Shown piece by piece: positions 4,646 through 40,783 of a DNA stretch of 64,000 nucleotides. Each line of letters starts with the position of its first letter. The first letter of the stretch is position 1. This DNA comes from Eubacteriales bacterium. GTDB lineage: Bacteria > Bacillota > Clostridia > Oscillospirales > JAAYXM01. The notes under the pieces were generated by a model. The model did no database searches. It saw nothing but the letters and a program-made list of their open reading frames with translations, and had not been told where the DNA came from. Both the position numbers and the translations under genes were made by a program. Where the stretch lies: the NCBI GenBank assembly GCA_045539475.1, contig JAZQFJ010000045.1:2024-66023 (forward strand). The letters are read 5' to 3'.

Positions 4646-6274
4646 TTAGTTATTCTTTTCGTATTCGCCGTCGGTGATTAGGGTATACGCACTTTCGTTT
4701 CTCAAAATTGCATAACCGACATATGTTCCTTTTTCATCCGCAATAACGCTGAACTGTGTGCCCGGCTTTGTCATAGCAATTCTCGTTGTGTTACTTTCAC
4801 TGTCTGTAAACATAATGCCCTTTTCAACTGCATCTTCAAGACCGATAAACTCTGCCATAACACCGGTTACGCCTGCAGCTACATCAAATGCGTCGATGAT
4901 TATCTTCATCTTGCTGCCGGTGTAATAGTGGTCTTCGTATTCTGCAGTTACTGTGCACTCTTCCCACGCCTTGAAGCTGTATGTTGAATCACAGCTTACA
5001 ATTTCTGTCTCACCGTTTATACCGGTCTTTGTCCAGCACTTGAATACACCTGTGGCGTTTGCTGTGCAGATAACTGTGTCACCGTAAGCATACAAACCTG
5101 TGCCGGTACCACCGGTTACGGTTATACCGATATTCTTTTCCGGTTCATCAAGGTCATAATGTGCAACATAGATGTTTGTTTCGCCGTAGCGGTCCCAGCC
5201 AGTTGATGTGCCGTAGCCTGCCATCGAAACTCTTGTTTCCTGATTTGCCCCGGGAATAAGCTGACCGTTTGCATTGTAGTATTCCGTTCCGGAAACTTCA
5301 TCAGCATATACCGGGATAAGATAATTTGCATACTTTGAATCCGGAGCATAGTTTTTAAGCTCGTTGGTCTCGCCGATAAGAATTCTCTTCTGTGTGGTAA
5401 GCCCCTTTGCCCAATAGAGGAATTTTGCACCGTTTTTATTTATTTCCGGAGCTGTGATGTTATGCGTTCCGTCAGCGTTCTTAACTGATTTAATCTCGCT
5501 GCCGTCTTTTGAAATAGTTATTACGGCCGGTTCGTTGTAGTTTTCCTCCGGAACACTGCCGTCAAGCTCAAATGCCGCGACGAGCTCTTCATCTTCCTCT
5601 ACCGGAACAAGCTTTATTCCGGAAAGATACATTTCCTGCTGATACGCGGCATTCAGAGAGTCATTTACTCCGGTCGCATCAGTGGCTACTGAACCATCCA
5701 CCACATTTATTACTTTAGAATTAAGTGTAACAGAATTTAATGTTGCTGCAAAAAGAATGCAGTATTCTCCCACTTCAAGGTCTGCTACGATTTTTTCTCC
5801 ATCAGCACTTCCATTCTTCGTGACCGGAGCATATTCCCCTGCAGGTGCCGCAGAAAAGTTGAAGTAACCGAGAAGCTTGTCGTCCGTTCCGATAATCGCA
5901 TTGGTGTTTGTTGCACTGTCCATTGCTGAATTATATTTTGCAATCGCAATTGCGGGTGCAATTGATGTTGCCTCAGGATTGTCGGTCTTAAAGTAGACAT
6001 TATATATGCCCGGTGTTGCCACGCTTGCCTTCAGCGCAACGAACTGGCGATGTGATGAGTTTCCGCCGGCACTATATCTCCGCACCTGTATGCCTGTCCA
6101 TGAGAGAACGGAATCGGTAATCTCAACAGATTCCGAAGCACTGCTGCCTGTGGTTTTTGCTATAATTTGGGATATCACAAGCTCCTGCTCGGTTGCCTCT
6201 CCCGTTGCGAAGACTGACGGGATGAGAGAGAGCATAATCGCCGCCGCAAGGATAATTGATAATATTTTTTTCAT
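4646..6274 (-). CDS. Secreted 542-aa protein. Its N-terminal module is shared with the 1..4580 product, and its C-terminal repeats are of the Listeria/Bacteroides (YxFxGW-like) kind.
   Basis: ORF track, with an AGGAGG RBS and signal peptide MKKILSIILAAAIMLSLIPSVFA. Nucleotide repeat 5617-6205 matches 3910-4500. C-terminal motifs are AKFLYWAKG and GVFKCWTKTG. Confidence 0.8.
   Translation of the reverse strand: MKKILSIILAAAIMLSLIPSVFATGEATEQELVISQIIAKTTGSSASESVEITDSVLSWTGIQVRRYSAGGNSSHRQFVALKASVATPGIYNVYFKTDNPEATSIAPAIAIAKYNSAMDSATNTNAIIGTDDKLLGYFNFSAAPAGEYAPVTKNGSADGEKIVADLEVGEYCILFAATLNSVTLNSKVINVVDGSVATDATGVNDSLNAAYQQEMYLSGIKLVPVEEDEELVAAFELDGSVPEENYNEPAVITISKDGSEIKSVKNADGTHNITAPEINKNGAKFLYWAKGLTTQKRILIGETNELKNYAPDSKYANYLIPVYADEVSGTEYYNANGQLIPGANQETRVSMAGYGTSTGWDRYGETNIYVAHYDLDEPEKNIGITVTGGTGTGLYAYGDTVICTANATGVFKCWTKTGINGETEIVSCDSTYSFKAWEECTVTAEYEDHYYTGSKMKIIIDAFDVAAGVTGVMAEFIGLEDAVEKGIMFTDSESNTTRIAMTKPGTQFSVIADEKGTYVGYAILRNESAYTLITDGEYEKNN
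5617..6205 (-). repeat. Copy 2 of the ~600-nt direct repeat (approximate ends)
   Basis: See 3910-4500. The antisense shadow ORFs 4300..4677 and 6006..6302 also have near-identical translations (MPGVATL.FSATNWRC...). Confidence 0.85.
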
Positions 6275-6503
6275 TCTGTTTTTCCTCCTAAAAATACATT
6301 AAAAATTTTATCTATATAAAACAACCCGAGGGTTGCACAATACAATCATAACATTGCGGATAAAATATCACCCGGAAAGTTTGATTTTACTGTAATTATA
6401 CACTTAACTGAAAGCAAAATAAATACACAAATATGCGAGTTTTATACTTTTTGGTACTAAAACGCAAAATGCACACAATACACAAAGAAGTCCTGATAAA
6501 GCA

Positions 6504-6539
6504 AAAAGCAGTGAGTGGACCCGTTGTCTGCTCACTGCT
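6504..6539 (-). terminator. Hairpin plus T-run downstream of the AraC gene
   Basis: agcagtgag...ctcactgct stem, followed on the minus strand by TTTTTGC. Confidence 0.5.
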
Positions 6540-6563
6540 TTCCTATGATGAACCGTCTGTATT

Positions 6564-7367
6564 TTACTTTGAAGACTTATACCGTTGCATAAAGAGTGTC
6601 GGCGAAGTTCCAACATACTCCTTAAACTGACGACTGAAATAATATACGTTGTCGTATCCGCACATCTCAGCCACCTCGGATATTGAGTAGCGTTCGGAGC
6701 TGAGAAGATCGCAAGCGTAATTTATTTTCATCTGAATTACGTATTTTACCGGAGTTACCCCAAACTTTTTGACAAACAGCTTTTTGAGATATGACTCACT
6801 TATTCTGCACTTTTCAGCGAGCAATGGTACGGATATCTTTTTCTCCAGAAAGTTGTTCTCAATATAATTTATAGCCGGTTTTATTGCGTCATACTGGCTT
6901 TGCCTTATGTAGTTTGTTTTCTGCATTTCTGCGAAAATTTTGTAAAGCAAGGATATACACTCAAAATAGTAGCCGTCATTTTTGGAAACCCATACTGTAA
7001 AAAGCTTTTTAAATAAATTCCCAACTTTTTCCGAATTGTTGCACTTCATGACAAATGCTTCGTCGGTTACCGGAGAATCCGTATCAAAAAATATATCTAT
7101 GCACTCCGGACCGTGACCTATCTTTTGGTTTTTAACAATATACTCCCGATTTTCTCCTTTCGGCAAAAAACGAATCATATTTTCCTCAACATTCATGATT
7201 TTTCCGTTGAAACAAACCGTATTCTTTCCCGTAAAATTGTATATAAGTTCATTATGTGTGACCTGATTCTTAAAAACCACTCTTTCCTGAGGATATTCAT
7301 TTTTTCCTACAAAAACAGCTCTGGTAATTCCCGTTATAAGAAAATTATTTTTAAAATTATCACTCAT
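6564..7367 (-). CDS. AraC-family transcriptional regulator
   Basis: C-terminal double HTH: ISVPLLAEKCRISESYLKKLFVKKFGVTPVKYVIQMKINYACDLL...ISEVAEMCGYDNVYYFSRQFKEYVGTSP. I place the start at the internal ATG 7367 (MSDNFKNN) rather than the ORF-track start 7472. Divergent from the GRE gene. Confidence 0.85.
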   Translation of the reverse strand: MSDNFKNNFLITGITRAVFVGKNEYPQERVVFKNQVTHNELIYNFTGKNTVCFNGKIMNVEENMIRFLPKGENREYIVKNQKIGHGPECIDIFFDTDSPVTDEAFVMKCNNSEKVGNLFKKLFTVWVSKNDGYYFECISLLYKIFAEMQKTNYIRQSQYDAIKPAINYIENNFLEKKISVPLLAEKCRISESYLKKLFVKKFGVTPVKYVIQMKINYACDLLSSERYSISEVAEMCGYDNVYYFSRQFKEYVGTSPTLFMQRYKSSK

Positions 7368-7524: not shown

Positions 7525-9645
7525 ATGACAGAAAGAATAAAAGAGCTTACAAAATTAACGCTTGAGGGAAAAATGTATGCAAATCCCATCAAGACCGAAT
7601 TTAATAAGGAAGATATACTGTTGCCGAAGCAACAGAAAGAAGCAAAGCAGCTTTGTGAATATATTTTAAATCAGGAGCCAGTACTTACCCCATATTCAAT
7701 GATGACCGGATTCTTTAACTGCAGCAATTCCGTTGTCGGCGATGTTTTCCGCCGTATGGGACATAAAACATTCGCGGAGCTTTTCACCAGTCTTTACTTA
7801 AAGCCAATCGACAATCTCTCAACCTTTGAATGGCAGCATGCAACGGCTGATTATAAAAAAGTCCTCGAAAAAGGAATTTCTGGAATAATCGGTGAGATAG
7901 ATGATTCTCTTAAGGTACATACGGATCCGAATGAGACAGAATTCTTAAATGCACTGAAATCCGTCGCCCACGCGCTCATCAGCTGGGCACACAAATGTGC
8001 AGACCGCGCGCTCGCGCTTTCGAAAACGGTTGGTAATTGCGAATACAAAGAAAATCTTGAAAAGCTTTCAGAAACGTTATACAGAGTTCCCGAAAACGCA
8101 CCTTCTTCCTTTTACGAAGCCGTGCTTACAATATATCTCTGCTTTTCCGCAGATCCGGACAGCATTGGAACACCTGACCGTTATCTTACGCCATTTTATG
8201 AAAGCGACATAAAAAACGGAGTGATAACAAGAGACGGTGCTAAAGAAATACTTCAGGAGCTGTTTTTAATGCTTCAGGCAGCAACCCACGTGACATCAGC
8301 GTGGTTTACAAGAGGCGGCGAATCCCACTTCTGCATCGGCGGATACCTCCCGAATGGCGAGGATGGGTTCAATGACCTTTCACGCCTTATTCTCGAAGGC
8401 TTAATGGAGCTTCCCACATGGATACCACAGGTAACTCTTCGCTGGACAAAAAAGATGCCGAAGGAAGACTTCCGATTCGTACTTAACTGCGAACGGAATG
8501 ACCCCAACAAGAGAATTGCTTTCCAAAACGACGAAAAGCGCATAAAATGCTATACCGAAATATGCGGCTTCCCGTTTGAAAAAGCGGTAGGATATACTAC
8601 CGTAGGATGTAACGAACCGGCATTTCAGGGCGCAGTTACCGGCAGCACCTCAGCGGTAAATTTTGCCCGTTCAACAGAAACCGTTTTCTACAAAAAGAGC
8701 GATGAAATCCTGAATGCAAAAACGTTTGATGATTTCTATAATGTTTTTATTACTGAATTGCTTTCGGATATTGACGTTGCCTGCGACTATGATGATAAAT
8801 ACAACCTCAAGCGCGCGGAGGATATCAACTATTTATCCTCTCTTTTCTTTGACGGCTGTATCGAAAAGGCAAAAAGTGCAACGCAAGGCCCCGGCACTTT
8901 CGCTATCGCATCCATTTTTTATATCGGAATAACAAATGTAATAGATTCACTTATCATAACAAAGCAGTTCGTATTCGATGAAAAGCTTGTTACGATGCAA
9001 GAGCTTGTTTCCGCACTCCGCGCTGACTGGCAAGGATATGAAGAGCTTCACGCCACTATTCTGAAAAAGGGTGACTTTTTCGGCAATGACACCGAACGCT
9101 CAAATTATATTGCACAAAAGCTTTTCCAAAACCTTTACGAGCATCTGAAAGATAAAACAAATCTTTTCGGTTACCACTGGCTTATCGGCGATCTTACAGG
9201 ATATCGCGATCATCCGAAATTGTTCGGTAAAAAAACAAAAGCCACGCCGGACGGAAGATATTCAGGCGATTCTCTCAAATTCGGCTTCGGTCAGAGCGAG
9301 GGCAAAGATCGGAACGGGCTCTCCGCGCTTTTAAATTCAATTGCAAAAGCCGATCCCAATGCAATCGGCTGCGGTTCAACTGTCACCAACATAATGATAG
9401 ATGAGCAGTTGATAAAAAATGACGAGTATTTTGAGAAAACCGTTGATATGCTTGAAACGTACTTCAAAAACGGCGGTGTACATTTTCAGCTTACTTATGT
9501 ATCAAAAGAGGACCTTCTCAACGCAAAAGTTACACCGGATAATTACAAAAACCTGCGCGTTCGCGTTTCTGGCTTTGCCGATTACTTCGTAAAGCTGAGC
9601 GATACTCTGCAAGACGATATCATCGAAAGAACAATGCAAAAATGA
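7525..9645 (+). CDS. Glycyl radical enzyme (PFL2/dehydratase-like class), unusually short at about 706 aa
   Basis: C-terminal glycyl-radical fingerprint NLRVRVSGFADYFVKL. Cys-loop TTVGCNEPAFQG (GC-x-E-P as in GRE 1,2-eliminases). RBS AAAGGTGGA sits before ATG 7525; the ORF track starts at GTG 7513. Confidence 0.9.
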   Translation: MTERIKELTKLTLEGKMYANPIKTEFNKEDILLPKQQKEAKQLCEYILNQEPVLTPYSMMTGFFNCSNSVVGDVFRRMGHKTFAELFTSLYLKPIDNLSTFEWQHATADYKKVLEKGISGIIGEIDDSLKVHTDPNETEFLNALKSVAHALISWAHKCADRALALSKTVGNCEYKENLEKLSETLYRVPENAPSSFYEAVLTIYLCFSADPDSIGTPDRYLTPFYESDIKNGVITRDGAKEILQELFLMLQAATHVTSAWFTRGGESHFCIGGYLPNGEDGFNDLSRLILEGLMELPTWIPQVTLRWTKKMPKEDFRFVLNCERNDPNKRIAFQNDEKRIKCYTEICGFPFEKAVGYTTVGCNEPAFQGAVTGSTSAVNFARSTETVFYKKSDEILNAKTFDDFYNVFITELLSDIDVACDYDDKYNLKRAEDINYLSSLFFDGCIEKAKSATQGPGTFAIASIFYIGITNVIDSLIITKQFVFDEKLVTMQELVSALRADWQGYEELHATILKKGDFFGNDTERSNYIAQKLFQNLYEHLKDKTNLFGYHWLIGDLTGYRDHPKLFGKKTKATPDGRYSGDSLKFGFGQSEGKDRNGLSALLNSIAKADPNAIGCGSTVTNIMIDEQLIKNDEYFEKTVDMLETYFKNGGVHFQLTYVSKEDLLNAKVTPDNYKNLRVRVSGFADYFVKLSDTLQDDIIERTMQK

Positions 9646-10385
9646 AACTGAGAAATGATAAAATAATTGTTTTCGGTGGCGGAGGAGGCATTGGTTCTGC
9701 CATTGCAAAACGCTTTTGCGATGCCGGAGCAAAAGTTTTGATTGCAGGCAGAAGTGAAGCTTCGCTTAAAAAGGTTGCCGATGAAATCGACAGCAGGAAT
9801 TTGTTTTACAAGACATTCGACATCTCAAAGGTTGATGAACATATTTCTTTTTTCGACGAAGCTGAAGCTCTTCTTGGCGAGATTAGCGGATTTGTAAACT
9901 CTGCCGCTCTCGGAAGCAAGAGAGGATATGAACCGTGGGATATAACGAGCGCTGAATGGGATGCCATGTCAGACATAAACTTCAAAGCAGCATTCTTTTT
10001 AATGCGCAATGAGGTTGACTATATGCTTAAAAAAGGCATACGGGGAAATATCCTGAATCTTTCTTCCAATGCCGCATGTATGGATATCACAGGTAGCTAC
10101 GGTGCATCAAAGGAAGCAATCGTCAAATGGACAAGAGCGTTCGGGAAAAGATTCGGTCACAAAGGAATTATCATAAACGGAATTGCTCCGGGTGCGACGT
10201 TCACTCCCATGATTTTCGATTATGCACACGATATCAACCAAAAGTATGAACGCCACGCGATTGAGCGCTTTATCCGCCCCGACGAGATCGCAGAGCTTGC
10301 TTTTTATCTCATGAGCGACTATGGCGAAATAATCTGCGGTCATACGGTTGTTGCTGATGGCGGCGATAATGTGGCGACATTATAA
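9642..10385 (+). CDS. Short-chain dehydrogenase/reductase (SDR)
   Basis: Gly-rich NAD(P) motif VFGGGGGIGSAIA and catalytic S...YGASK (YxxxK). ATGA overlap with the GRE stop suggests translational coupling. Confidence 0.9.
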   Translation: MKLRNDKIIVFGGGGGIGSAIAKRFCDAGAKVLIAGRSEASLKKVADEIDSRNLFYKTFDISKVDEHISFFDEAEALLGEISGFVNSAALGSKRGYEPWDITSAEWDAMSDINFKAAFFLMRNEVDYMLKKGIRGNILNLSSNAACMDITGSYGASKEAIVKWTRAFGKRFGHKGIIINGIAPGATFTPMIFDYAHDINQKYERHAIERFIRPDEIAELAFYLMSDYGEIICGHTVVADGGDNVATL

Positions 10386-10452
10386 AAAACCTAATTTGTA
10401 TCTGTATAACTCACGAATTATAAAATAAATTTTCCTTTTAGGAGCTACATTT

Positions 10453-11592
10453 ATGTTTGAAAATTTAAAAAAGTTTTGCGACTCATTTTTAGAAATTGAT
10501 GTTCCCGGGTTTGATTTGGCGGTTTATAAAGACGGTGAGTGTATCCTACGGCATATGAACGGCTACAGCGACCTTGAAAACAAAATCAAAATGAACGGAA
10601 AAGAAAAATACAATATTTATTCCTGCTCAAAGGTTATAACCTGTACTGCAGCCTTGCAGTTATGGGAAAAAGGATTGTTTTCACTTGAGGACAAGCTTTC
10701 CGACTATATGCCCGAGTTTAAGGAAATGACGATCAAAACAGAGGGTGGCATCAAAAAAGCCGAGAACCCGATTTTAATAAAACACTTGTTCGAAATGACA
10801 GCAGGCTTTTCCTACAACTGTTCTTCACCGCAATTAAAGAAGGCTTTTGACGAAACGGCCGGTAGGTGCCCTACCCGTGAAGTAATGAAATATTTGGCAA
10901 AAGAGCCGTTGCTTTTTGAACCGGGCGACAGGTGGTTGTATAGCTTATGCCACGATGTTTTGGCAGCTTTTGTCGAAGTGGTTTCGGGTGAGAAATTTGA
11001 AGCCTATGTCAAAAAGAATATTTTTGATGTTTTGGGAATGAATGATTCTACGTTTATGCTACCCGAATCGGAAATTGAAACAATTGCACCGCAATACAAA
11101 TTTAAAGACGGTAAAGCGATCAATATCGGAAGACCTATATCTAACTATAAAATAGGCACTGAATACGCGTCAGGCGGCGCAGGTGGAATTTCTACCGTAG
11201 ACGATTATATGAAATTTTTGGAAGCGATTCGTACCCATAAACTGATAAAGTCTGAAACGCTGAAATTGATGATGACTGACCGTTTAAGCTCTCATCAAAA
11301 ACGCACCTATGAGGCAAAAAACACCCACGGCTACGGCTTGGGCGTGCGTTGTCCAATGGGTGACAAACGGTATATTGATTTCGGTTGGGGCGGTGCTGCA
11401 GGCGCATTTTGGGCTATTGATGTTGAAAATGCCATTTCCCTTTATTTCGGTATGCATTTATTGTCTTCTCCCTCCCAGGGGTTGCGTTCCATGCTTTATC
11501 TCTTCGTAAGAACAGAGCTGTTTGATAACAGCGAGTTTGATGATTTGTATAAAGATTTAAAAGAATTACACGATTATAATTTAACCTATTAA
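10453..11592 (+). CDS. Serine hydrolase of the beta-lactamase/transpeptidase-like fold
   Basis: SxxK motif in YNIYSCSKVIT, size 379 aa, no signal peptide, AGGAG RBS. Confidence 0.8.
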   Translation: MFENLKKFCDSFLEIDVPGFDLAVYKDGECILRHMNGYSDLENKIKMNGKEKYNIYSCSKVITCTAALQLWEKGLFSLEDKLSDYMPEFKEMTIKTEGGIKKAENPILIKHLFEMTAGFSYNCSSPQLKKAFDETAGRCPTREVMKYLAKEPLLFEPGDRWLYSLCHDVLAAFVEVVSGEKFEAYVKKNIFDVLGMNDSTFMLPESEIETIAPQYKFKDGKAINIGRPISNYKIGTEYASGGAGGISTVDDYMKFLEAIRTHKLIKSETLKLMMTDRLSSHQKRTYEAKNTHGYGLGVRCPMGDKRYIDFGWGGAAGAFWAIDVENAISLYFGMHLLSSPSQGLRSMLYLFVRTELFDNSEFDDLYKDLKELHDYNLTY

Positions 11593-11604
11593 CGGAGAGA
11601 AACT

Positions 11605-12429
11605 ATGTCTGTTTCCACAATATTTGATATACAAAGAAATTCATTTGTTGACGGGCCCGGCATCCGCACGACTGTGTTTTTCAAAGGTTGTAACTTAAGA
11701 TGCAGATGGTGTCACAATCCCGAAAGCCGGAATTTTGAAAAAGAAATATTGTTTTATCAAAACAAATGTACCGGTTGCGGAAGATGCAAGGAGATAACTG
11801 CCGACAACATAGACTTTATTTGCTTTAGCGATGCAAAGGAAATCTGTGGAAAAGAATATACCGTTGACGAAGTTTTCGGCGAAATAATCAAAGATAAAAC
11901 TTTTTATGAAACATCAGGCGGCGGTGTAACATTTTCCGGTGGAGAATGTATGCTGCAGATTGATTTTCTCACCGAAATACTCAAAAAATGCAAGGATACC
12001 GGCATCCATACGGCTATTGATACTGCAGGGCATATATCTTGGGAAAGCTTTGAAAAAATTCTTCCGTACACCGACTTGTTTTTATATGACATCAAAACTA
12101 TGGATGAAAAAAAACACAAGGAATATACAGGCGTCACAAACAGGCTTATACTTGAAAACATCAAAAATCTTCTCAAAACCGGAGCGGATATATGGGTAAG
12201 AGTCCCGGTAATTCCCGGTTTCAATGATAACGAAGAAGAAATGAGAAGCATCCGTTCTTTCTTTGAAAAGAACGGATATCCGAAAAAAATCGAGCTTCTT
12301 CCCTACCACGCGATGGGCGAACACAAATATACGGCACTGGGCGAAGAAGTTCATCACTTCGCCGTTCCAAACAAAGAAAAGATCGATGAACTGAATGCTG
12401 TTTTCTATGCCCATCGGCATAATTCATAA
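11605..12429 (+). CDS. Glycyl-radical-enzyme activating enzyme (radical SAM)
   Basis: CNLRCRWCHNPE (Cx3Cx2C), ferredoxin-like CTGCGRC, and GGVTFSGGE SAM-binding motif. Confidence 0.9.
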   Translation: MSVSTIFDIQRNSFVDGPGIRTTVFFKGCNLRCRWCHNPESRNFEKEILFYQNKCTGCGRCKEITADNIDFICFSDAKEICGKEYTVDEVFGEIIKDKTFYETSGGGVTFSGGECMLQIDFLTEILKKCKDTGIHTAIDTAGHISWESFEKILPYTDLFLYDIKTMDEKKHKEYTGVTNRLILENIKNLLKTGADIWVRVPVIPGFNDNEEEMRSIRSFFEKNGYPKKIELLPYHAMGEHKYTALGEEVHHFAVPNKEKIDELNAVFYAHRHNS

Positions 12430-13659: not shown

Positions 13660-14439
13660 TTGAAAGAGAATAAATCGCCGAAGGATGCGGCAATGTACAG
13701 AAAAAAAGATTATGTGACTAACAAGCTCCTTCTTGTTTTCACGCTTGCATTTGCGCTTTTGCTTTTACTTATGAACGTAGGGCGCATGATGAAGAGCACA
13801 GCAACGTTTATGTCCGCGTATACCGTGGTTAAGGTTGTTGCAGTTGCCGCCGTGGTACTCGTTGCCGCGGGAATCGTTATGATGATTGTTGAGCATTCTA
13901 AAAAGAAAGATATGAGCTACCGACTTCTCTCGGGCAAGAACGTGACAGTTGCGGCTTTGTTCGTTGCAATCTGTGCTATCGCCCTTTCCCTCGTCTTTTC
14001 GCAGAGTATGCTTATGCTTCTTTACATCTTCGTTCCTGCAGTTGTTGTTTTGTATATCATCTACTATTCATATCAGCGCGAATTTTTCCTTATCGCCCTT
14101 TCCTGTATCGTCGGCGGTATCGGAATCTGGCTTTTGGGTTCTGACCTTGTGAACACTAAAGATGTTCTCGCAATTGCAGGCGCTGCTGCACTCGTTATTC
14201 TCACTGCAGGCTTTGCACTGTGGGCACAGCTCGGAAAAGGGAAGATAAAGCTTTTCGGACGTGAGCTTGCGGTTTTCAAGGCAGATGCACGTTACGGAAT
14301 CATCTACCTCACCTGTCTTTTGGTTCTTATGCTTCTTGCCGCAGCTTTCCTCGCTCCGGACCTTGCAATGTACTTTGTTTTCGCACTCATTGCATACATC
14401 GTTCTTACCGGTGTGTATTATACCGTAAAGCTTATTTAA
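13660..14439 (+). CDS. Polytopic membrane protein of unknown function
   Basis: The ORF-track translation shows about 7 hydrophobic segments. The start is uncertain: TTG 13660 or ATG 13693. Confidence 0.65.
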   Translation: MKENKSPKDAAMYRKKDYVTNKLLLVFTLAFALLLLLMNVGRMMKSTATFMSAYTVVKVVAVAAVVLVAAGIVMMIVEHSKKKDMSYRLLSGKNVTVAALFVAICAIALSLVFSQSMLMLLYIFVPAVVVLYIIYYSYQREFFLIALSCIVGGIGIWLLGSDLVNTKDVLAIAGAAALVILTAGFALWAQLGKGKIKLFGRELAVFKADARYGIIYLTCLLVLMLLAAAFLAPDLAMYFVFALIAYIVLTGVYYTVKLI

Positions 14440-14468
14440 ATTTTATTTGAACTTTTGCAAAAAAAGGC

Positions 14469-14497
14469 TTGACGTAAACACATTTTTCATTTATAAT
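14469..14497 (+). promoter_or_regulatory. Promoter for tRNA-Ser
   Basis: TTGACG, 17 nt, TATAAT. A perfect 12-bp hairpin (gtcggtattcgg/ccgaataccgac) lies between the promoter and the tRNA. Confidence 0.55.
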
Positions 14498-14560
14498 ATA
14501 TCAAGTAAGTCGGTATTCGGCTTACACAAAACCGAATACCGACGACTTTATTTTCGACTT

Positions 14561-14652
14561 GGAGAAGTACTCAAGCTGGTCGAAGAGGCGCCCCTGCTAA
14601 GGGCGTAGGTCGCGAAAGCGGTGCGGGAGTTCGAATCTCCCCTTCTCCGCCA
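14561..14652 (+). tRNA. tRNA-Ser (anticodon GCU), CCA encoded
   Basis: Manual fold: acceptor GGAGAAG/CTTCTCC, anticodon stem CGCCC/GGGCG with loop CTGCTAA, long variable arm, T-arm GGGAG-TTCGAATC-CTCCC, then GCCA. Confidence 0.9.
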
Positions 14653-14657
14653 GAAAA

Positions 14658-14684
14658 AAGACATCCTTTAGGGTGTCTTTTTTC
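14658..14684 (+). terminator. Rho-independent terminator after tRNA-Ser
   Basis: aagacatcc-ttta-gggtgtctt followed by a T-run. Confidence 0.8.
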
Positions 14685-14823
14685 AGTTATATTTGCCTTA
14701 TGGCAAGTTATGAATTGACTTTGTCAACGCTTGTCTTATTAAAGGTAAATATATCATAACAGCAAACGAAGTTTGCTTCATAACTATAAACTCTAAACTT
14801 TCAACTTCCCTCTAAACCATTCA

Positions 14824-15356
14824 TCTCCGCCAGAAAAACCTCATCATTCTCTCATGAAAAAACGGCAAAAACCGGCGAAAATTTGGCAGAAACTTGGCAA
14901 CACAAAAAATAAATTCTGTGTTATAATTTATGGCAATGATGCTTTCGGAGTGAACATCTGTGAATTTGTGCGCGATTCATGAAGGATGCTCCGTGTGCGC
15001 AAAGCGTCAGGTTTGTATTGAAAAAACAATACAAATAAATTATAATAGAAAGGAAAACAACAATGTTAACACAAAATTTATTTAACAAAAAGCCAAAAAC
15101 TTTCATGGACTATGAGCCTGGTAAGTTGCCAAACAACAAAGATTGGGACACGCAGACGAAATCCGAAACCAAAAATTATGCCCCTTTTGCATCAAATGTG
15201 AAAATAGTCGGAAACAATGTAACAAAAAAGGACTACGATGATTTCTTTGAAGGGTTCAATGACCCGTACGGAGAAAAAAGAGAGCAAGAACAACAACGAA
15301 AAGAAAGGCTTGCTAACATTCGTGCAAACGCGGATAAGCAAAACCGGTATTCTCAG
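14824..15356 (+). repeat. Cassette repeat copy 1: tRNA-3'-end-like core, 239-nt leader and first 98 codons
   Basis: Near-identical to 17053..17586. Homology starts exactly at tctccgccagaaaaacc and ends after codon 98. Confidence 0.9.
14919..14927 (+). promoter_or_regulatory. Extended -10 promoter element (TGtTATAAT) in the cassette 1 leader
   Basis: ctgTGtTATAATtt. There is no good -35. Four phased GGC(A/G)(A/G)AA repeats sit upstream. Confidence 0.45.
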
Positions 15357-16208
15357 AGTGCATCCACTTTACAAACAGATGCGTTTGTTAAAGGATTTAA
15401 TAAAGAAAAAACAACCGGCATATTAAATCCACATCCTCCCTATGATACCGACCGTGCTTTTGGATTACTCGGTACAGAAGAGAGCGAATTAAAATCGACG
15501 CTGCAAAAACTCAACGCTTCTCCTGCGATAACAAATGCTATCAATCGCAATCCCAATGCCAAAAGCGAATACAAACCCATCGGCACACATGATCCGAATG
15601 AAGAACCTGTTATAACACAATTGTCAAATGATGAGAAAACTTCGGATTTTACTGAGGTATTAGGTAATACATTAAAAAGATCATTTTTTGAAGCTTTTGC
15701 TCCGGATTATTTAAAACCATCCAGACATACTGCACTATGGTTTGTCGGTGCTGAAACCTACTTGAAGCATAAAGGTTATGATACTTCTGCATGGTTACTA
15801 AAACACTCTTTGCAACCAAATCCCGAAGATGTTTATAGGGATGATAATTCAAGAATTGCACAGCTTATCAAAAATGATCCGGCGTTTGTGAAAGAACTCG
15901 ACATAGCAATTGCCAATAGCGATGGGAAAACATTGGATAAAACAATTTCTGTTTCATTTAAGCAGGGAGATTTATATTATTCCATACATAAAAACGATAT
16001 AAAACTAACCGGATATAAAGATGAAAATGGAAAATGGAAAATTTCCGCAAGGTTGTCTGATGAATATAATTTCTCGGAACTTACTTCATGGATGGATGGT
16101 GAAGATGCTACATTGGGTACATTGGCTAATGATGTAGCGTATTTTTCTGAAAAGATTGGTGCGATAACTCCATACAATATTTATGTCGATTTTAATATTG
16201 AAAGGTAG
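15063..16208 (+). CDS. Cassette 1 large protein (381 aa): conserved 98-aa N-terminus plus a unique C-terminal domain. Polymorphic-toxin-like architecture; function unknown.
   Basis: ORF track, RBS AAAGGA. No signal peptide or TM segment. The first 98 residues differ at 2 positions from 17293..18498; the remainder is unrelated. Confidence 0.6.
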   Translation: MLTQNLFNKKPKTFMDYEPGKLPNNKDWDTQTKSETKNYAPFASNVKIVGNNVTKKDYDDFFEGFNDPYGEKREQEQQRKERLANIRANADKQNRYSQSASTLQTDAFVKGFNKEKTTGILNPHPPYDTDRAFGLLGTEESELKSTLQKLNASPAITNAINRNPNAKSEYKPIGTHDPNEEPVITQLSNDEKTSDFTEVLGNTLKRSFFEAFAPDYLKPSRHTALWFVGAETYLKHKGYDTSAWLLKHSLQPNPEDVYRDDNSRIAQLIKNDPAFVKELDIAIANSDGKTLDKTISVSFKQGDLYYSIHKNDIKLTGYKDENGKWKISARLSDEYNFSELTSWMDGEDATLGTLANDVAYFSEKIGAITPYNIYVDFNIER

Positions 16209-16214
16209 AGTTTT

Positions 16215-16820
16215 ATGAAAAAAATCTTTTTGCTCGTTTTGACACTTTTACTTTTAACATCCTGTAGTAGCAGTGTGGAATTAAATCCCGAATGGTATCC
16301 TCACGGATGGGCAGGTAAAGATACTATTTTTGTCTCCCGACCAAATGGAAAATTCAGTATCGGGCAATATTCTAAAAGTCAAGCTCTCGCTGTAAACACC
16401 GATGACGAAAGGCATGACATCCTTCTTTCTTCAGTAACTGACCATAAACGAATCGAAGATAAAGTGTATGTATATTCCGATGAAGGATATTGCGTTATTG
16501 ATGAAACTGCCAACACCGCAGAAGTTTTGGTTATCGTGGAAGATCAGTATGCGTTATCGGGTACGGATGATCCTGCCGTCACATATCTAAAATCATTTGA
16601 CGATTTTTCAGACAAGGCAAAAAAGATTTTTACAGAGATGGGGCAATACTGGTCTGACAAAGAATATCGTAGATACGGTTCAAATGACAAAATATATCCT
16701 GACGGGACCATTGAATATTCGGATGGTGGTTTATATCAGATGGTAGTAATTTATGTTATACTTCAACTACTTGTTGCTACTGTCCTTGTAATTATTAGAT
16801 TGCGTGCGCGAAAAAAATAA
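16215..16820 (+). CDS. Lipoprotein with C-terminal TM anchor (201 aa). Candidate immunity or partner protein of cassette 1.
   Basis: Lipobox MKKIFLLVLTLLLLTSCSS and C-terminal hydrophobic VVIYVILQLLVATVLVIIRL. Starts 7 nt after the upstream stop. Confidence 0.6.
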   Translation: MKKIFLLVLTLLLLTSCSSSVELNPEWYPHGWAGKDTIFVSRPNGKFSIGQYSKSQALAVNTDDERHDILLSSVTDHKRIEDKVYVYSDEGYCVIDETANTAEVLVIVEDQYALSGTDDPAVTYLKSFDDFSDKAKKIFTEMGQYWSDKEYRRYGSNDKIYPDGTIEYSDGGLYQMVVIYVILQLLVATVLVIIRLRARKK

Positions 16821-16943
16821 TTTCTTTTGCGTTTCGCTTGTAATTTTATCCACCTACGGTTAATTTAGCAGTGAGTGGATTTTTTCTCTAAAGCTACTAT
16901 TTATACAACTTCAGAATATATTGTGCATATGGGTGGCAGAGCT

Positions 16944-16955
16944 CCTTCTCCGCCA
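16944..16955 (+). repeat. Copy of the tRNA-Ser 3' end (ccttctccgcca)
   Basis: A 12/12 match to 14641-14652, closing cassette 1. It sits within a ~36-nt stretch homologous to 18903-18938. Confidence 0.75.
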
Positions 16956-16987
16956 AAAACTGACAAGTTTCAACTTGTCAGTTTTTT
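16955..16987 (+). terminator. Rho-independent terminator directly after the tRNA-end copy
   Basis: ctgacaagt-ttca-acttgtcag followed by a T-run. Confidence 0.75.
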
Positions 16988-17052
16988 ACTTTTCACTATT
17001 CTCTTTTATCTATTCTCTCTTCACAAAAAGTGTATTTACATAAAACTTAAGT

Positions 17053-17586
17053 TCTCCGCCAGAAAAACCTCATCATTCTCTCATGAAAAAACGGCAAAAA
17101 GTTGGCGGAATTTTGGCAGAAACTTGGCAACACAAAAAATAAATTCTGTGTTATAATTTATGGCAATGATGCTTTTGGAGTGAACGTCTGTGAATTTGTG
17201 CGCGATTCATGAAGGATGCTCCGTGTGCGCAAAGTATCAGGTTTGTATTGAAAAAACAATACAAATAAATTATAATAGAAAGGTAAACAACAATGTTAAC
17301 ACAAAATTTATTTAACAAAAAGCCAAAAACTTTTATGGACTATGAGCCTGGTAAGTTGCCAAGCAACAAAGATTGGGACACGCAGACGAAATCCGAAACC
17401 AAAAATTATGCCCCTTTTGCATCAAATGTGAAAATAGTCGGAGACAATGTAACAAAAAAGGACTACGATGATTTCTTTGAAGGGTTCAATGACCCGTACG
17501 GAGAAAAAAGAGAGCAAGAACAGCAACGAAAAGAAAGGCTTGCTAACATTCGTGCAAACGCTGATAAGCAAAACCGGTATTCTCAA
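17053..17586 (+). repeat. Cassette repeat copy 2
   Basis: See 14824..15356. ttctccgccagaaaaa at 17052-17067 matches the tRNA end plus flank for 16 nt. Confidence 0.9.
17149..17157 (+). promoter_or_regulatory. Extended -10 promoter element in the cassette 2 leader
   Basis: Same TGtTATAAT as in cassette 1. Confidence 0.45.
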
Positions 17587-18498
17587 AATAACTCATTTCT
17601 CGAAGGTTTCAATTCTGCTGGAATTACGAAAAAAAGCAGAAAAGGAAACGGCATGTTTCAAAAAACAAAACCGGAGATTACAAAACTTCCCTTTAACCCA
17701 TCACAAGAAGTGAAAATTGAGAAAATGCCAGGCGGTCCAAATAAACCATTATCCTTTATTCAATATGTAAATGGAGAAACAAATGACCCGTGGGGGTCTT
17801 CTCTCGGTGGTGATTTGAAGTCCAACGAAGACAAGGCTCTTTTTCTTGAAGGTTTTGCGGGAGAGTCTAAACAACCACAAAACAAAACCCAAGATAAAGA
17901 TGCCATAGAGTTTGGAGTAGATTCCGAAACCTATAAAATTCTTCAGGATCTCAGTAAACGATGGTATGCAACTTCTGATTCTGCAGAAAAAGACAGACTG
18001 CACGAGGTAGCAGAGAAAGTAAGGATGTATCATCGTCAAGGAACTCCAATTTTTGATAAGCACGATGCGATAATGAATCTTTTGCACGAAAATAAAAAAA
18101 GGGCTCAAGATTATCAGAAAACGATGACAGAAGGTTTTCCAGGCTTTCTTTATCGAATGTCTGACGGAAACTATATGTTAGATTCCTCAACATATCTTAT
18201 CGGAATGGTCGATGAAGGTGAATGGGACTACAAGTACAATAAAGATTGGCAAGTGCCACACGATCACTTCGATGGCAAATATATGGATACCCCCGGAAGT
18301 AATTATAGAAATTGGTTGCCATGGATGTATTTTGATGGTCGATTGATTTCAGCTGATAAACTTGGCAATATGAATATGGCGTATGTTGGCAAAAATATGG
18401 GATTACCCGAGTGGGTGTACAAAAACATTACTACCACAGATAAAGATGATGCGGAGTGGGTTCAGTACGGCATTGACCTTGCAAATTCAGGGAGGTAA
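17293..18498 (+). CDS. Cassette 2 large protein (401 aa): the same 98-aa N-terminus with a different C-terminal domain (possibly toxin-44-like)
   Basis: ORF track. The C-terminal stretch GEWDYKYN...ADKLGNMNMAYVGKNMGLPEW recalls, from memory, the WDYK / GNxxYG pattern of polymorphic toxin type 44 domains. This is unverified. Confidence 0.6.
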   Translation: MLTQNLFNKKPKTFMDYEPGKLPSNKDWDTQTKSETKNYAPFASNVKIVGDNVTKKDYDDFFEGFNDPYGEKREQEQQRKERLANIRANADKQNRYSQNNSFLEGFNSAGITKKSRKGNGMFQKTKPEITKLPFNPSQEVKIEKMPGGPNKPLSFIQYVNGETNDPWGSSLGGDLKSNEDKALFLEGFAGESKQPQNKTQDKDAIEFGVDSETYKILQDLSKRWYATSDSAEKDRLHEVAEKVRMYHRQGTPIFDKHDAIMNLLHENKKRAQDYQKTMTEGFPGFLYRMSDGNYMLDSSTYLIGMVDEGEWDYKYNKDWQVPHDHFDGKYMDTPGSNYRNWLPWMYFDGRLISADKLGNMNMAYVGKNMGLPEWVYKNITTTDKDDAEWVQYGIDLANSGR

Positions 18499-18502
18499 AC
18501 TC

Positions 18503-18823
18503 ATGAAGAAACATTTTCTCGTTAATACATTGTTTTCTCTTGCTTTCATTATTTTCGACCCATTTTTAATCTGGTGCAGTGATTTAGCTGATGTGTATAG
18601 CTTGGGCGCAGAAATGGTTTTAGGAATGTTAATACCTTTTGTTTTCTTCCTTTTTATTCTCTTTGCCATTTTCTCTGTATCACTTTCTTTGTACAAAGCC
18701 ATTGCTACGAAAGACATAAAGCAAACTATACCAACTTTGGTGCTCATTGCATTTGTAACACTGTATATTACTTTGTCAACACAAGACAGTCTATGGGTTC
18801 GTGTCATTGAATATTGTAAATAA
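18503..18823 (+). CDS. Small 3-TM membrane protein (106 aa). Candidate immunity or partner protein of cassette 2.
   Basis: GGAGG RBS then ATG 18503 (MKKHFLVNTLFSLAFIIF...), 4 nt after the upstream stop. The ORF track shows a longer in-frame version starting at 18383. Confidence 0.6.
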   Translation: MKKHFLVNTLFSLAFIIFDPFLIWCSDLADVYSLGAEMVLGMLIPFVFFLFILFAIFSVSLSLYKAIATKDIKQTIPTLVLIAFVTLYITLSTQDSLWVRVIEYCK

Positions 18824-18926
18824 TGCGACGCAAAGTAAAAACAACATACCTAACCACCTCACAAAATCAATAATGAGATGAAATCCCAAAATAGAACAAG
18901 GCATTGTACACACTCGTGGCAACGCT

Positions 18927-18938
18927 CCTTCTCCGCCA
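18927..18938 (+). repeat. Copy of the tRNA-Ser 3' end (ccttctccgcca)
   Basis: A 12/12 match, closing cassette 2. Confidence 0.75.
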
Positions 18939-18940
18939 AC

Positions 18941-18982
18941 AAAAAAGTCACTTTTGTCTATCAAGACAAAGGTGACTTTTTT
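18941..18982 (+). terminator. Rho-independent terminator after the distal tRNA-end copy
   Basis: aaaagtcacttttgtct-atca-agacaaaggtgactttt followed by a T-run. Confidence 0.75.
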
Positions 18983-19086
18983 AAATGTTGTTTGCCTGCG
19001 GCAAATGATGTTGGCGTTGCCAATGATGTTCGATTCGCGAATGATGTGTGCCTTGCGGCAGGATTTTGCATATTTTACTGTTATTC

Positions 19087-20451
19087 TTATATCTTAAATA
19101 TTCCGAATGCATCAAGAACAGACGATACAAGGATGAGAACGATGCATATAGGTGCAACGTACTTTATAATCACCTCAAAAAGTCTCCTCTTCTTGAACTT
19201 AGAATTAAGCTCAACTTCTTCAATAACTGTTTTCGGCTTAATTACATAACCTACAAAGATGCAGGTAAGGAAAGCAACTATCGGCATAAGCACGCTGTTG
19301 CTTATGAAATCGAAGAAGTCAAGGAACTGAAGACCGATGATCGTGACATTTCCGAGCGGTCCGTAGCCGAGCGAGGAAAGAAGCCCGAGCGCAACGGAGA
19401 AGACGAACACGACAAGGCATGAAAGCTTGCGGGAAAGCTTCGTCTTATCACAAACTATGGAAACAACTGTTTCAAACAATGAAATGGACGATGTGAGCGC
19501 CGCAAAAAGAACGAGAAGGAAGAACGCAATGCCGACAACCGTTCCGGCAGGCATCGTCTCAAAGACCTTCGGAAGTGTTACGAACATAAGGCTCGGACCC
19601 TTACCGAGAGCCTCGGGGGTTCCGCCGGAGAATACGAACACAGCCGGGATAATCATAAGACCTGCAAGAACCGCGATGCCCGTATCGAAAATCTCTATCT
19701 GGGAAACGGAGGATTCGAGGTTAACATCCTTCTTCATATATGAGCCGTAGGTTATCATAATTCCCATCGCAAGAGACATTGAGTAGAAAAGCTGCCCCAT
19801 AGCGGCAAGAACCGTTGTTGCGGAGAATTTTGAAAGGTCCGGAAGGAGATAGTACTTAACGCCTTCTAGTGCGCCCGGCATACATACCGAATAAACCGCA
19901 ATAACAATTGAGAGTACAACAAGAATCGGCATCATAACCTTTGATACCTTCTCTATGCCCTTTTCAACGCCGCAGAGAACAACAATCGCAGTTATTCCGA
20001 TAAAGGCAAGGAACCAAAAAATCGGTTCTCCGGTCTGTGAGATAAAGCCGGTAAAATAAGAATCACCTGCAGCTGCACCGGCGCCGCCGCTTGCAAACGC
20101 ATAAAGATACTTCGTTACCCAGCCGCCTATTACGGAATAATACGGCAGAATAATCGCCGGAATAATCGCCGCGATGTATCCGATGAATGAATACTTTTTG
20201 TTAAGCGCGCGGTATGCACCAATTGCTGAAAGACCCGTTTTTCTTCCGATTGCAATTTCTGCCGTCATCAGCGCAAAGCCGAAGGTAATCGCAAGAAGGA
20301 TGTATACAAGGAGAAAAATGCCGCCGCCGTATTTCGCAGCGAGATACGGGAATCTCCATATATTACCAAGCCCGACTGCCGAGCCCGCAGCAGCAAGAAC
20401 AAAGCCTATCTTGCCGGTAAAGCTGCTTCTGTTTTCGTTTGACATACTCAT
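19087..20451 (-). CDS. Sodium-dependent transporter, neurotransmitter:sodium symporter (NSS/SNF) family
   Basis: Signature GLGNIWRFPYLAAKYGGG. Polytopic, 454 aa. Confidence 0.9.
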   Translation of the reverse strand: MSMSNENRSSFTGKIGFVLAAAGSAVGLGNIWRFPYLAAKYGGGIFLLVYILLAITFGFALMTAEIAIGRKTGLSAIGAYRALNKKYSFIGYIAAIIPAIILPYYSVIGGWVTKYLYAFASGGAGAAAGDSYFTGFISQTGEPIFWFLAFIGITAIVVLCGVEKGIEKVSKVMMPILVVLSIVIAVYSVCMPGALEGVKYYLLPDLSKFSATTVLAAMGQLFYSMSLAMGIMITYGSYMKKDVNLESSVSQIEIFDTGIAVLAGLMIIPAVFVFSGGTPEALGKGPSLMFVTLPKVFETMPAGTVVGIAFFLLVLFAALTSSISLFETVVSIVCDKTKLSRKLSCLVVFVFSVALGLLSSLGYGPLGNVTIIGLQFLDFFDFISNSVLMPIVAFLTCIFVGYVIKPKTVIEEVELNSKFKKRRLFEVIIKYVAPICIVLILVSSVLDAFGIFKI

Positions 20452-40721: not shown

Positions 40722-40783
40722 ATTATCACACCGCCTTTTAGACTTTCTTATAACATTGTAACACATTTAACCGCCAAGGTCAA
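38980..40783 (-). mobile_element. Left-end module of an integrated element (junction in spoVT, recombinase and its promoter). The right boundary is not identified within the window.
   Basis: spoVT homology is lost abruptly at 38979/38980. The recombinase gene abuts the junction, and this segment is visibly AT-richer than the flanks. Confidence 0.55.
40755..40783 (-). promoter_or_regulatory. Promoter of the serine recombinase gene
   Basis: Minus strand: TTGACC, 17 nt, TACAAT, about 30 nt before the RBS. Confidence 0.55.

Follow-up and report, generated by a model that had tools for sequence, protein, structure and literature searches.

The DNA immediately downstream of a tRNA-Ser(GCT) gene in the window, by which we mean the whole 64,000-nt stretch analysed here (contig JAZQFJ010000045.1 of an Eubacteriales bacterium), holds two small cassettes, A and B, each made up of a putative toxin-immunity operon and closed on its right by a copy of the tRNA 3' end. 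We propose that this array grew by tandem accretion, at the 3' end of the tRNA gene, of units that lack an integrase and were recombined in trans, and that homologous recombination is superimposed on that process; we consider this account probable, although far from assured. Comparison with relatives shows repeats of the tRNA end, a conserved arm beside them, swapping of modules at boundaries set by the repeat core, permuted cassette order, and cargo that is more alike between genomes than its flanks. A recombining enzyme, a circular intermediate, and the functions of the toxin and immunity proteins are what we infer in addition. The comparison took in about ten related assemblies, with synteny of prmA, a gene for a 259-aa membrane protein and tRNA-Ser; most of the sequences compared are metagenome-assembled genomes (MAGs) or metagenome scaffolds. 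Loci and proteins in them carry L and P numbers, and positions refer to the window unless a locus is named.

Copies of the tRNA-Ser 3' end punctuate the array

The core repeat, which we call O, is the final 12 nt of tRNA-Ser(GCT) (CCTTCTCCGCCA, 14641-14652). On the plus strand it occurs exactly three times (14641, 16944 and 18927); the chance expectation is 0.14 matches with one mismatch allowed, and the observed count was reached in none of 100 shuffles. Behind each of the three copies, at a distance of 0-3 nt, stands a strong hairpin and T-run that differs from copy to copy (14653-14684, 16955-16986 and 18941-18982), just as an earlier note on this DNA had described. A related string that combines the tRNA end with its flank, TCTCCGCCAGAAAAA, has exact matches at 14644, 14824 and 17053, and altogether the block contains three exact 12-nt copies of the tRNA end and two of 9-10 nt. 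The earlier note credited each of the five copies with a terminator of its own, which is true of three; the two shorter copies, at 14824 and 17052, have none. It also took these two to be the exact left edges of the cassettes. They are indeed present, and the block shared by A and B does start there, but they are not the outer left edge of the inserted unit: because the unit that is gained or lost between genomes runs from 14653 to 16955 (see below), we read both as internal relic junctions.

After the tRNA gene the order in the window is T1, relic copy, cassette A, O, T2, relic copy, cassette B, O, T3, where T1, T2 and T3 carry the terminators (Table 1), and the units measure about 2.0 and 2.3 kb. 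The region from 14.8 to 19.0 kb is richer in A and T than its surroundings, as had been noted (GC 0.34-0.40, against 0.42-0.51 in the flanks). It contains only four real open reading frames (ORFs), and searches of Pfam, NCBIfam, PADLOC and PHROGs assigned none of them to an integrase, transposase or replication family, in keeping with the earlier statement that such genes are lacking from the block. Cassettes A and B are paralogues, since 14824-15370 and 17053-17590 are about 95-98% identical; this shared stretch of ~550 nt comprises a promoter and its 11-nt repeats, the structured leader RNA, and the coding sequence of a ~95-aa N-terminal domain.

A conserved right end joins an arm to the tRNA-identical core

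Both cassettes end in a 24-nt arm followed by O, and the flanking similarity of the two distal copies that was pointed out previously amounts to 80% over 40 nt (16920-16959 versus 18903-18942). The 36-nt right end (ATTGTGCATATGAGTGGCAGAGCTCCTTCTCCGCCA) is conserved in nine cassettes with differing cargo, namely A and B of the window and those of L001, L002, L003, L006, L013, L015 and L027. Eight of the nine match the tRNA over an unbroken 9-18 nt, the core of L002 being degenerate, while upstream of the core the arm agrees with the tRNA at only 4-9 of 24 positions, the level expected by chance; the latter result rules out the possibility that the arms are decayed tandem tRNA genes. Because only the final 9-18 nt match the tRNA, we regard the arm as an element-specific sequence joined to a tRNA-identical core, which is likewise how attP and attR sites are built. 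The right end of cassette A holds the dyad TGGCAGAG-N6-CTCCGCCA; for the general form, TGGCRGAG-N6-CTCCGCCA, 7-8 of 8 positions are complementary in four cassettes, and the dyad is perfect in L006. Judged by these features, the cassette right end looks like an attachment site.

We also considered whether the tRNA-like 3' ends act in RNA, as tRNA-mimic elements for processing or stabilising the operon mRNAs. The arm and core of cassette B are transcribed, lying between the stop codon and the only terminator, as such a role would demand. In A-type cassettes, however, the operon hairpin and its U-run end ~35 nt before the arm (L015 restores one mispair to a pair), and because the A-type arm is therefore downstream of the operon terminator, its conservation is better explained at the level of DNA than by a function in the mRNA. 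Given also that the acceptor-stem partner GGAGAAG is absent, that there is no tRNA-like fold, that the arm matches the tRNA so poorly, and that module swapping at the copies would be left unexplained, we find a role in RNA scarcely credible.

Two further observations concern these ends. The motif TGGC(A/G)GA of the promoter repeats (see below) recurs in the cassette right arm and, on the opposite strand, in the tRNA-end core, possibly by coincidence. Furthermore, L002/L004 have a cassette at a non-tRNA locus (9770-12215), between GFO_IDH and DHHW genes, with a degenerate arm-core end (...TGGCAGCGCTTCTTCTCCGCAA); its left homology ends at the same base as in the tRNA-linked cassettes, immediately before GAAAAC, with no tRNA-end copy there.

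Modules change partners exactly at the core

The earlier note suggested comparing this locus between related strains for variation in its cassettes, and we observed presence, absence and reordering, such that the block is not invariant core sequence. In L001, T2 stands directly after the CCA of the tRNA and is followed by cassette B only; relative to L001 the window has an extra 2303 bp (14653-16955), bounded by the 12-nt repeat. A third cargo type, an SLT_2 toxin with a 208-aa lipoprotein, is found in L003 and L006, and in L034 it is inserted between the tRNA and T1, with flanks 95% identical to the window. L008 and L027 have A-type cargo only, behind a different terminator segment, TK. Finally, L035 reads B, O, T1, relic copy, A-like cassette, the reverse of the window order, with segments 99-100% identical.

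The terminator segments themselves have changed neighbours. Directly after the tRNA stand T1 in the window, T2 in L001 and L003, and TK in L027 (with a related terminator in L008). Elsewhere the same segments lie behind a cassette end: T1 in L006, L034 and L035, T2 in the window and L027, and TK in L015; in L013, TK lies behind a 20-nt tRNA fragment. The junctions in our junction table always fall exactly after ...CCGCCA. One of them, B-type arm-O joined to T1, is present in three independent assemblies (L006, L034 and L035); it is the junction expected of a circle of the A+B array of the window, but it could equally have come from another order of insertion.

Each unit holds a terminator that serves the upstream neighbour, a short spacer with a relic copy, a promoter and leader, a putative toxin gene, a putative immunity gene, and a right end in which the 24-nt element-specific arm precedes a stretch of 9-18 nt that matches the tRNA 3' end exactly. 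We propose the following mechanism. Any two tRNA-end copies would be joined by a site-specific recombinase whose gene lies elsewhere in the genome or is carried by a helper element; circles would thereby be inserted and single or composite units excised, and tandem arrays would result. Homologous recombination through the conserved 5' half and the 3' arm would swap C-terminal toxin and immunity modules and homogenise neighbouring cassettes.

An alternative is that homologous recombination did all of this: a single operon would have been duplicated in tandem and reshaped by RecA-type exchange, with the tRNA-end copies left over from one ancient event and passive since. Such exchange could draw on the long 5' halves that the cassettes have in common, on the tRNA (92 identical nt) and on the conserved arm at the 3' end, and the outcome would be the module displacement usual for polymorphic toxins. 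We think this rather unlikely given where the breakpoints lie. T1, T2 and TK swap partners exactly at a core of 9-18 nt, too short for efficient RecA recombination; the indel between the window and L001 is bounded by the 12-nt repeat and not by the 550-nt repeats; the permuted order of L035 is not a product of unequal crossing-over between long repeats; and in A-type cassettes the arm has stayed conserved without being part of the transcript. The evidence that speaks for RecA-type exchange is taken up in the next section.

The left-edge copies are longer in some relatives: those of L003 and L006 reach 19-22 nt, and the L006 copy lies inside a broken tRNA-Ser 3' half. If the array were an immobile set of decayed ends from once larger, integrase-bearing islands or prophages at tRNA-Ser, differing between genomes through old independent integrations and later deletions, one would expect relic or degenerate tRNA-end copies and segments without genes (T1, T2, the broken half in L006, a degenerate copy in L034); the missing right end of L008 and the lack of an integrase nearby would fit as well. 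Nonetheless, the units are uniformly ~2.0-2.4 kb, with intact operons and conserved ends, unlike random deletion remnants; cargo is 91-100% identical where flanks are 71-95%, and order is permuted between close relatives, which implies recent movement; and no traces of integrase pseudogenes were seen in a crude scan. We therefore regard a fixed set of relics as improbable, and continue to favour accretion by recombination in trans; the earlier note had named both.

Cargo identity exceeds flank identity, and the 5' halves are probably homogenised

Compared with L001, the B1 C-terminal domain, B2 and T2 are 96-98% identical, with flanks at 85-90%; compared with L008, the A1 C-terminal domain and A2 are 91-93% identical, with flanks at 71-78%; and compared with L027, A is 83-87% and T2 94% identical, with flanks at 67-75%. 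Cargo is thus more conserved between genomes than the flanking housekeeping genes, and we therefore conclude that it has moved horizontally.

The leader and N-terminal region behave differently. They are 95-98% identical between A and B of the window and only 77-92% identical to orthologues; against L008 the figure is only 77-83%, so that the high between-genome identity of A is limited to the C-terminal domain and immunity gene. Because the A and B 5' halves are closer to each other (95-98%) than to their orthologues (only 87-92% on this count), a sign of intra-array gene conversion, we conclude that gene conversion within the array has been combined with exchange of C-terminal modules. This mosaic identity is our support for the second, homologous process; the array is reshaped by exchange between these common 5' halves as well, a point on which the first reading of this locus needs correction. 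Footprints of module displacement and decay are seen in L003, where a truncated B2-like gene (71 aa) and the last B1 codons lie behind a different toxin-immunity pair (7742-7957), and in L006, where the third-type toxin is split by a frameshift (116 + 235 aa; 6001-7124). Protein P0033 in L035 is a chimera, with the N-terminal and middle parts of A and a different C-terminus. Everything in this paragraph would also be expected had homologous recombination acted alone, as would the many family members that lie at non-tRNA loci without an arm.

Searches for a recombinase, a helper and a carrier

Pfam-annotated neighbourhoods of L001, L002, L023, L027-L031 and L034 contain no integrase, and a crude catalytic-motif scan of 27 loci found no tyrosine-recombinase-like ORF. 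The sole recombinase found in a loose motif scan of the loci is a solitary large serine recombinase of the window itself (38871-40766). We considered it as the trans-acting enzyme because serine recombinases drive the ssrA islands of Dehalococcoides (PMC3146451). It has thousands of homologues in Clostridia at 55-80% identity, many of them called as SpoVT_C fusions, which suggests a conserved element or a gene-interrupting arrangement at spoVT; we provisionally set it aside as a member of a huge conserved Clostridia family that has no visible link to cassette-bearing genomes. Hairpin-dependent recombination of single-stranded DNA, of the IS200/IS605 or integron type, was ruled out, since the hairpins behind the copies differ between modules and resemble ordinary terminators.

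When cassette DNA was compared with phage and plasmid collections, only tRNA-Ser genes matched. IMG/VR, queried with the N-terminal profile, arm-O and the tRNA 3' end, yielded no carrier and one chance 18-nt match in the coding region of a large viral contig; no helper phage, integrative and conjugative element or integrative and mobilisable element with this att site turned up in the phage, plasmid and IMG/VR searches. A scan of JGI metagenomes with the N-terminal profile returned one weak, irrelevant locus.

Several points weigh against accretion by recombination in trans. Neither the locus neighbourhoods nor the motif scan revealed a recombinase acting on the cassettes. There is no truly empty tRNA site among the relatives, as all six with an intact tRNA locus carry at least one cassette, and no excised circle turned up among assembled sequences. 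Many family members are at non-tRNA loci and have no arm-O (L005, L007, L009-L012, L014, L023 and L028-L030), from which we conclude that the cassette family also spreads by other means. L008 has no right end, and L002 has an arm-O-like end with no tRNA copy on its left. Lastly, MAG and metagenome scaffolds can be mis-assembled at repeats, although the 12-nt core is shorter than assembly k-mers.

The cargo is predicted to be polymorphic toxins with immunity proteins

The sequences of operons A and B indicate a polymorphic toxin-immunity architecture, a predicted cargo that the earlier note had missed. Beyond the common ~95-aa N-terminus, both the C-terminal domains and the small genes downstream differ between A and B. 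Homology searches returned about 85 relatives, among which N-terminal, middle and C-terminal modules are shuffled. The C-terminal domain of B is always at the extreme C-terminus and is also found on P0025, an RHS_repeat protein, and P0026, a PG_binding_1 protein; at least six other C-termini accompany the N-terminal domain, among them SLT_2, Ntox37 and a C39-like peptidase. The small gene is always 3' of the toxin gene, and its type, whether A2-like lipoprotein, B2-like membrane protein, ankyrin or beta-propeller, tracks the C-terminus. A defence-system or phage origin of the four proteins of the block was rejected, since they have no PADLOC matches and no meaningful PHROG matches.

An AlphaFold model of A1 is confident over residues 220-381. 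Foldseek matches the C-terminal model to syringacin M with an E value of 3.6e-4 and a probability of 1.0, but with a template modelling (TM) score of 0.23-0.31 and a root-mean-square deviation of 9 Å; the model also matches the C-terminal domain of a type VI secretion system effector of Bacteroides fragilis. Pfam gives no match of A1 to the colicin M family, and at the position of the colicin M catalytic motif (DxYDx5HR) A1 has DEYN...SW, with the family consensus retaining DxYD without HR; the motif allows deviations among ColM toxins, according to the family review (PMC5821083). Given the lack of a Pfam match and the incomplete catalytic motif, we treat the likeness as a lead and not as membership: on the strength of the model, A1 may resemble a colicin M-like enzyme that degrades lipid II. 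The C-terminal model of B1 is confident as well (predicted local distance difference test score, pLDDT, about 90), and it has no match in the PDB and only a sub-threshold match to Ntox44.

The common N-terminal part (residues 1-190) matches nothing in Pfam or NCBIfam, has no LXG, WXG or signal peptide (LXG toxins were compared from PMC5555719), and is of low pLDDT, and the annotated neighbourhoods of the cassette loci contain no conserved secretion genes. We suggest that these genes are used in antagonism between bacteria, with the cell envelope as the target; an envelope target is proposed because the A1 model resembles a colicin M-like enzyme and because the third cassette type, in relatives, carries an SLT_2 transglycosylase domain.

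Table 1. Features of the tRNA-Ser(GCT) array and the serine recombinase of the window
Feature	Position	Strand	Remarks
tRNA-Ser(GCT) gene	14561..14652	+	ARAGORN, Rfam
T1 segment	14653..14823	+	terminator hairpin 14653-14684 and non-coding spacer
Partial tRNA-end copy	14824..14838	+	TCTCCGCCA + GAAAAA; block shared by A and B begins here; read as relic junction
GGC repeats, cassette A	14862..14899	+	four (T/C)GGC(A/G) repeats, 10-11 nt spacing; kept in 14 loci
Structured leader RNA, cassette A	14938..15008	+	three helices, then U-run
Second promoter-like site, cassette A	15018-15046	+	
Toxin A1 (putative)	15063..16208	+	381 aa; N-terminal domain ~1-95, low-confidence linker, C-terminal domain ~191-381
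Immunity protein A2 (putative)	16215..16820	+	201 aa; lipoprotein signal (LTSC) and C-terminal membrane anchor
Operon-A terminator	16848..16886	+	hairpin and U-run, upstream of arm
Cassette-A right end	16920..16955	+	24-nt arm (ATTGTGCATATGGGTGGCAGAGCT) and 12-nt core O
T2 segment	16956..17051	+	terminator hairpin (16955-16986, overlaps final base of O) and spacer
Partial tRNA-end copy	17052..17067	+	TTCTCCGCCA + GAAAAA; left of cassette B
Cassette-B control region	17091..17276	+	GGC repeats 17091-17129, leader 17168-17238, second promoter-like site 17248-17276
Toxin B1 (putative)	17293..18498	+	401 aa; N-terminal domain as in A1, C-terminal domain ~201-401
Immunity protein B2 (putative)	18503..18823	+	106 aa; three hydrophobic segments
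Cassette-B right end	18903..18938	+	arm and core O
T3 terminator hairpin	18941..18982	+	19 pairs; distal boundary of array
Large serine recombinase	38871-40766	-	solitary; Resolvase + Recombinase + Zn_ribbon_recom

A control region with a candidate regulatory RNA

Downstream of the GGC repeats of cassette A is an extended -10 element, TGtTATAAT (14919-14927), and cassette B likewise has four repeats, at 11-nt spacing. The repeats are candidate regulator-binding sites and, from their sequence, look like activator sites, such as those of a response regulator. They are direct repeats of the form TTGGCA(A/G)AAAC (TTGTCA in some loci), and at 11-nt spacing they are also present, in 2-5 copies, in L003, L012, L023 and L027-L029.

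The pairing of the leader RNA was assessed in 17 sequences (window A and B, L001-L003, L006, L008-L010, L012-L016, L023, L027 and L028), in which 92% of cells are paired, as opposed to 28-50% when the partners are slid. Nine pairs have compensatory changes, a count reached by only one of 500 shuffles, and a GCGC/GCGC pseudoknot between the hairpin loop and the internal loop is possible. Rfam gives no match at E <= 1 over 14300-19300 besides the tRNA and noise. We propose the leader as a candidate new cis-regulatory RNA; its predicted fold suggests that it may be an attenuator or a riboswitch-like element for toxin expression.

Relation to known systems

Tandem islands at tRNA or tmRNA genes have been described in Dehalococcoides, at ssrA, where they are driven by serine recombinases (PMC3146451), and in Prochlorococcus, as tycheposon islands (bioRxiv 10.1101/2020.12.28.424599), and a concept of accretion and mobilisation has been developed for streptococci (ICEberg 2.0, PMC6323972). 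The locus resembles such islands and cis-mobilisable elements (CIMEs) in that direct repeats of a tRNA-type 3' end delimit successive units downstream of the gene, in that some units lack genes for integration and presumably move together with others or with their help, and in that partial relic copies record older events; an element-specific conserved motif just upstream of each repeat has likewise been reported for the ssrA islands. It differs in that its units are only ~2 kb, an integrase-bearing member is missing from every array in the assemblies examined, the cargo is in each unit a single self-promoted toxin-immunity operon with a common 5' half, and gene-less terminator segments act as separate modules. 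Among the usual marks of an integrative element, direct tRNA-end repeats and breakpoint polymorphism are present and an own integrase beside the att site is not; the combination of att-like sites on both sides with an absence of recombination and transfer genes is that of a CIME.

The concept of polymorphic toxins with displaced or orphan C-terminal toxin-immunity modules, covering Rhs, contact-dependent inhibition (CDI), MafB and LXG systems, reportedly goes back to Zhang et al. in 2012. The cassettes share with these systems a conserved N-terminus, hypervariable predicted C-terminal toxin domains and an adjoining downstream gene for a putative immunity protein, as well as C-terminal domains in common with RHS proteins, remnants of displaced modules, and putative immunity proteins that would be envelope-located for toxins predicted to target the envelope. 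Unlike them, the cassettes have an N-terminal domain that matches no known trafficking domain and an att-like end, sited at a tRNA 3' end; and unlike orphan arrays behind one full-length gene, every cassette forms an entire operon, promoter and leader included.

Integrons, integrative mobile elements exploiting Xer (IMEX) and pdif modules are small recombinase-less cassettes with short imperfect-dyad sites, whose arrays are reshuffled by an enzyme encoded elsewhere. The cassettes described here are also small, recombinase-less and stacked, and also end in a short imperfect-dyad site. Nonetheless, the locus is not an integron, since there is no IntI or attI beside the array and the cassettes have their own promoters; moreover, its site is the tRNA 3' end and not attC or dif, and the searches above found no recombinase linked to it. 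A bolder reading would make it an integron-like platform without a linked integrase, in which the tRNA-Ser 3' end is the entry site for self-promoted cassettes of ~2 kb, each with a short recombination site formed by the arm and TGGCRGAG-N6-CTCCGCCA, a recombinase encoded elsewhere in the chromosome takes up, excises and rearranges them, and gut Oscillospiraceae have a dedicated means of exchanging interbacterial toxin-immunity pairs equipped with a new N-terminal delivery domain and a new leader RNA. We hold that reading to be conceivable but doubtful.

If recombination in trans at the tRNA end is what happens here, it would be a very compact trade in antagonism genes among uncultured gut Clostridia, with one operon, one terminator and one ~36-nt site as the unit of exchange, and it would join tRNA-targeted integrative elements to polymorphic toxin diversification, which are usually separate fields. 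If the copies are passive instead, the locus is an ordinary variable toxin island. Out of the analysis come a defined candidate att site, three toxin-immunity pairs apparently directed at the envelope, an unassigned N-terminal domain that must explain export in a monoderm, and a leader RNA, supported by covariation, that is absent from Rfam.

Additional observations

The gene-less segment after the tRNA in L006 (5584-5776) holds the broken tRNA-Ser 3' half mentioned above (gcgaaagcggcgcgg ... atctccccttctccgcca). Its opposite strand carries a T-arm-like fragment (gagttcgaatctccctcacc), and a fragment resembling it, likewise in reverse orientation, is found near the SNF transporter gene end in L001 (11690-11710). 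These fragments may be traces of other tRNA-targeted insertions. At one end of L035 (1-362), the B1 gene breaks off at the equivalent of window position 18081, where the 3' part of a gene for a LexA/CI-like (S24 peptidase) repressor adjoins it; this reflects either the insertion of another mobile element or an assembly chimera.

On the other side of the tRNA gene, the gene for a pyruvate formate-lyase activating enzyme is 99.8% identical between L003 (2612-3436) and the window (11605-12429), and the prmA and membrane protein genes beside it are 88-90% identical between the two; the pattern has the look of a tract that recombined recently, close to the tRNA locus. Lastly, three tandem 18-nt repeats (GCnAATGATGTnnGnnTTGC) lie at 19001-19056, in the stretch that separates T3 from the end of the SNF transporter gene, and degenerate repeats of the same kind, rich in 'tgaaat', fill two gene-less segments in relatives, T5 of L003 and a 450-nt segment of L034.

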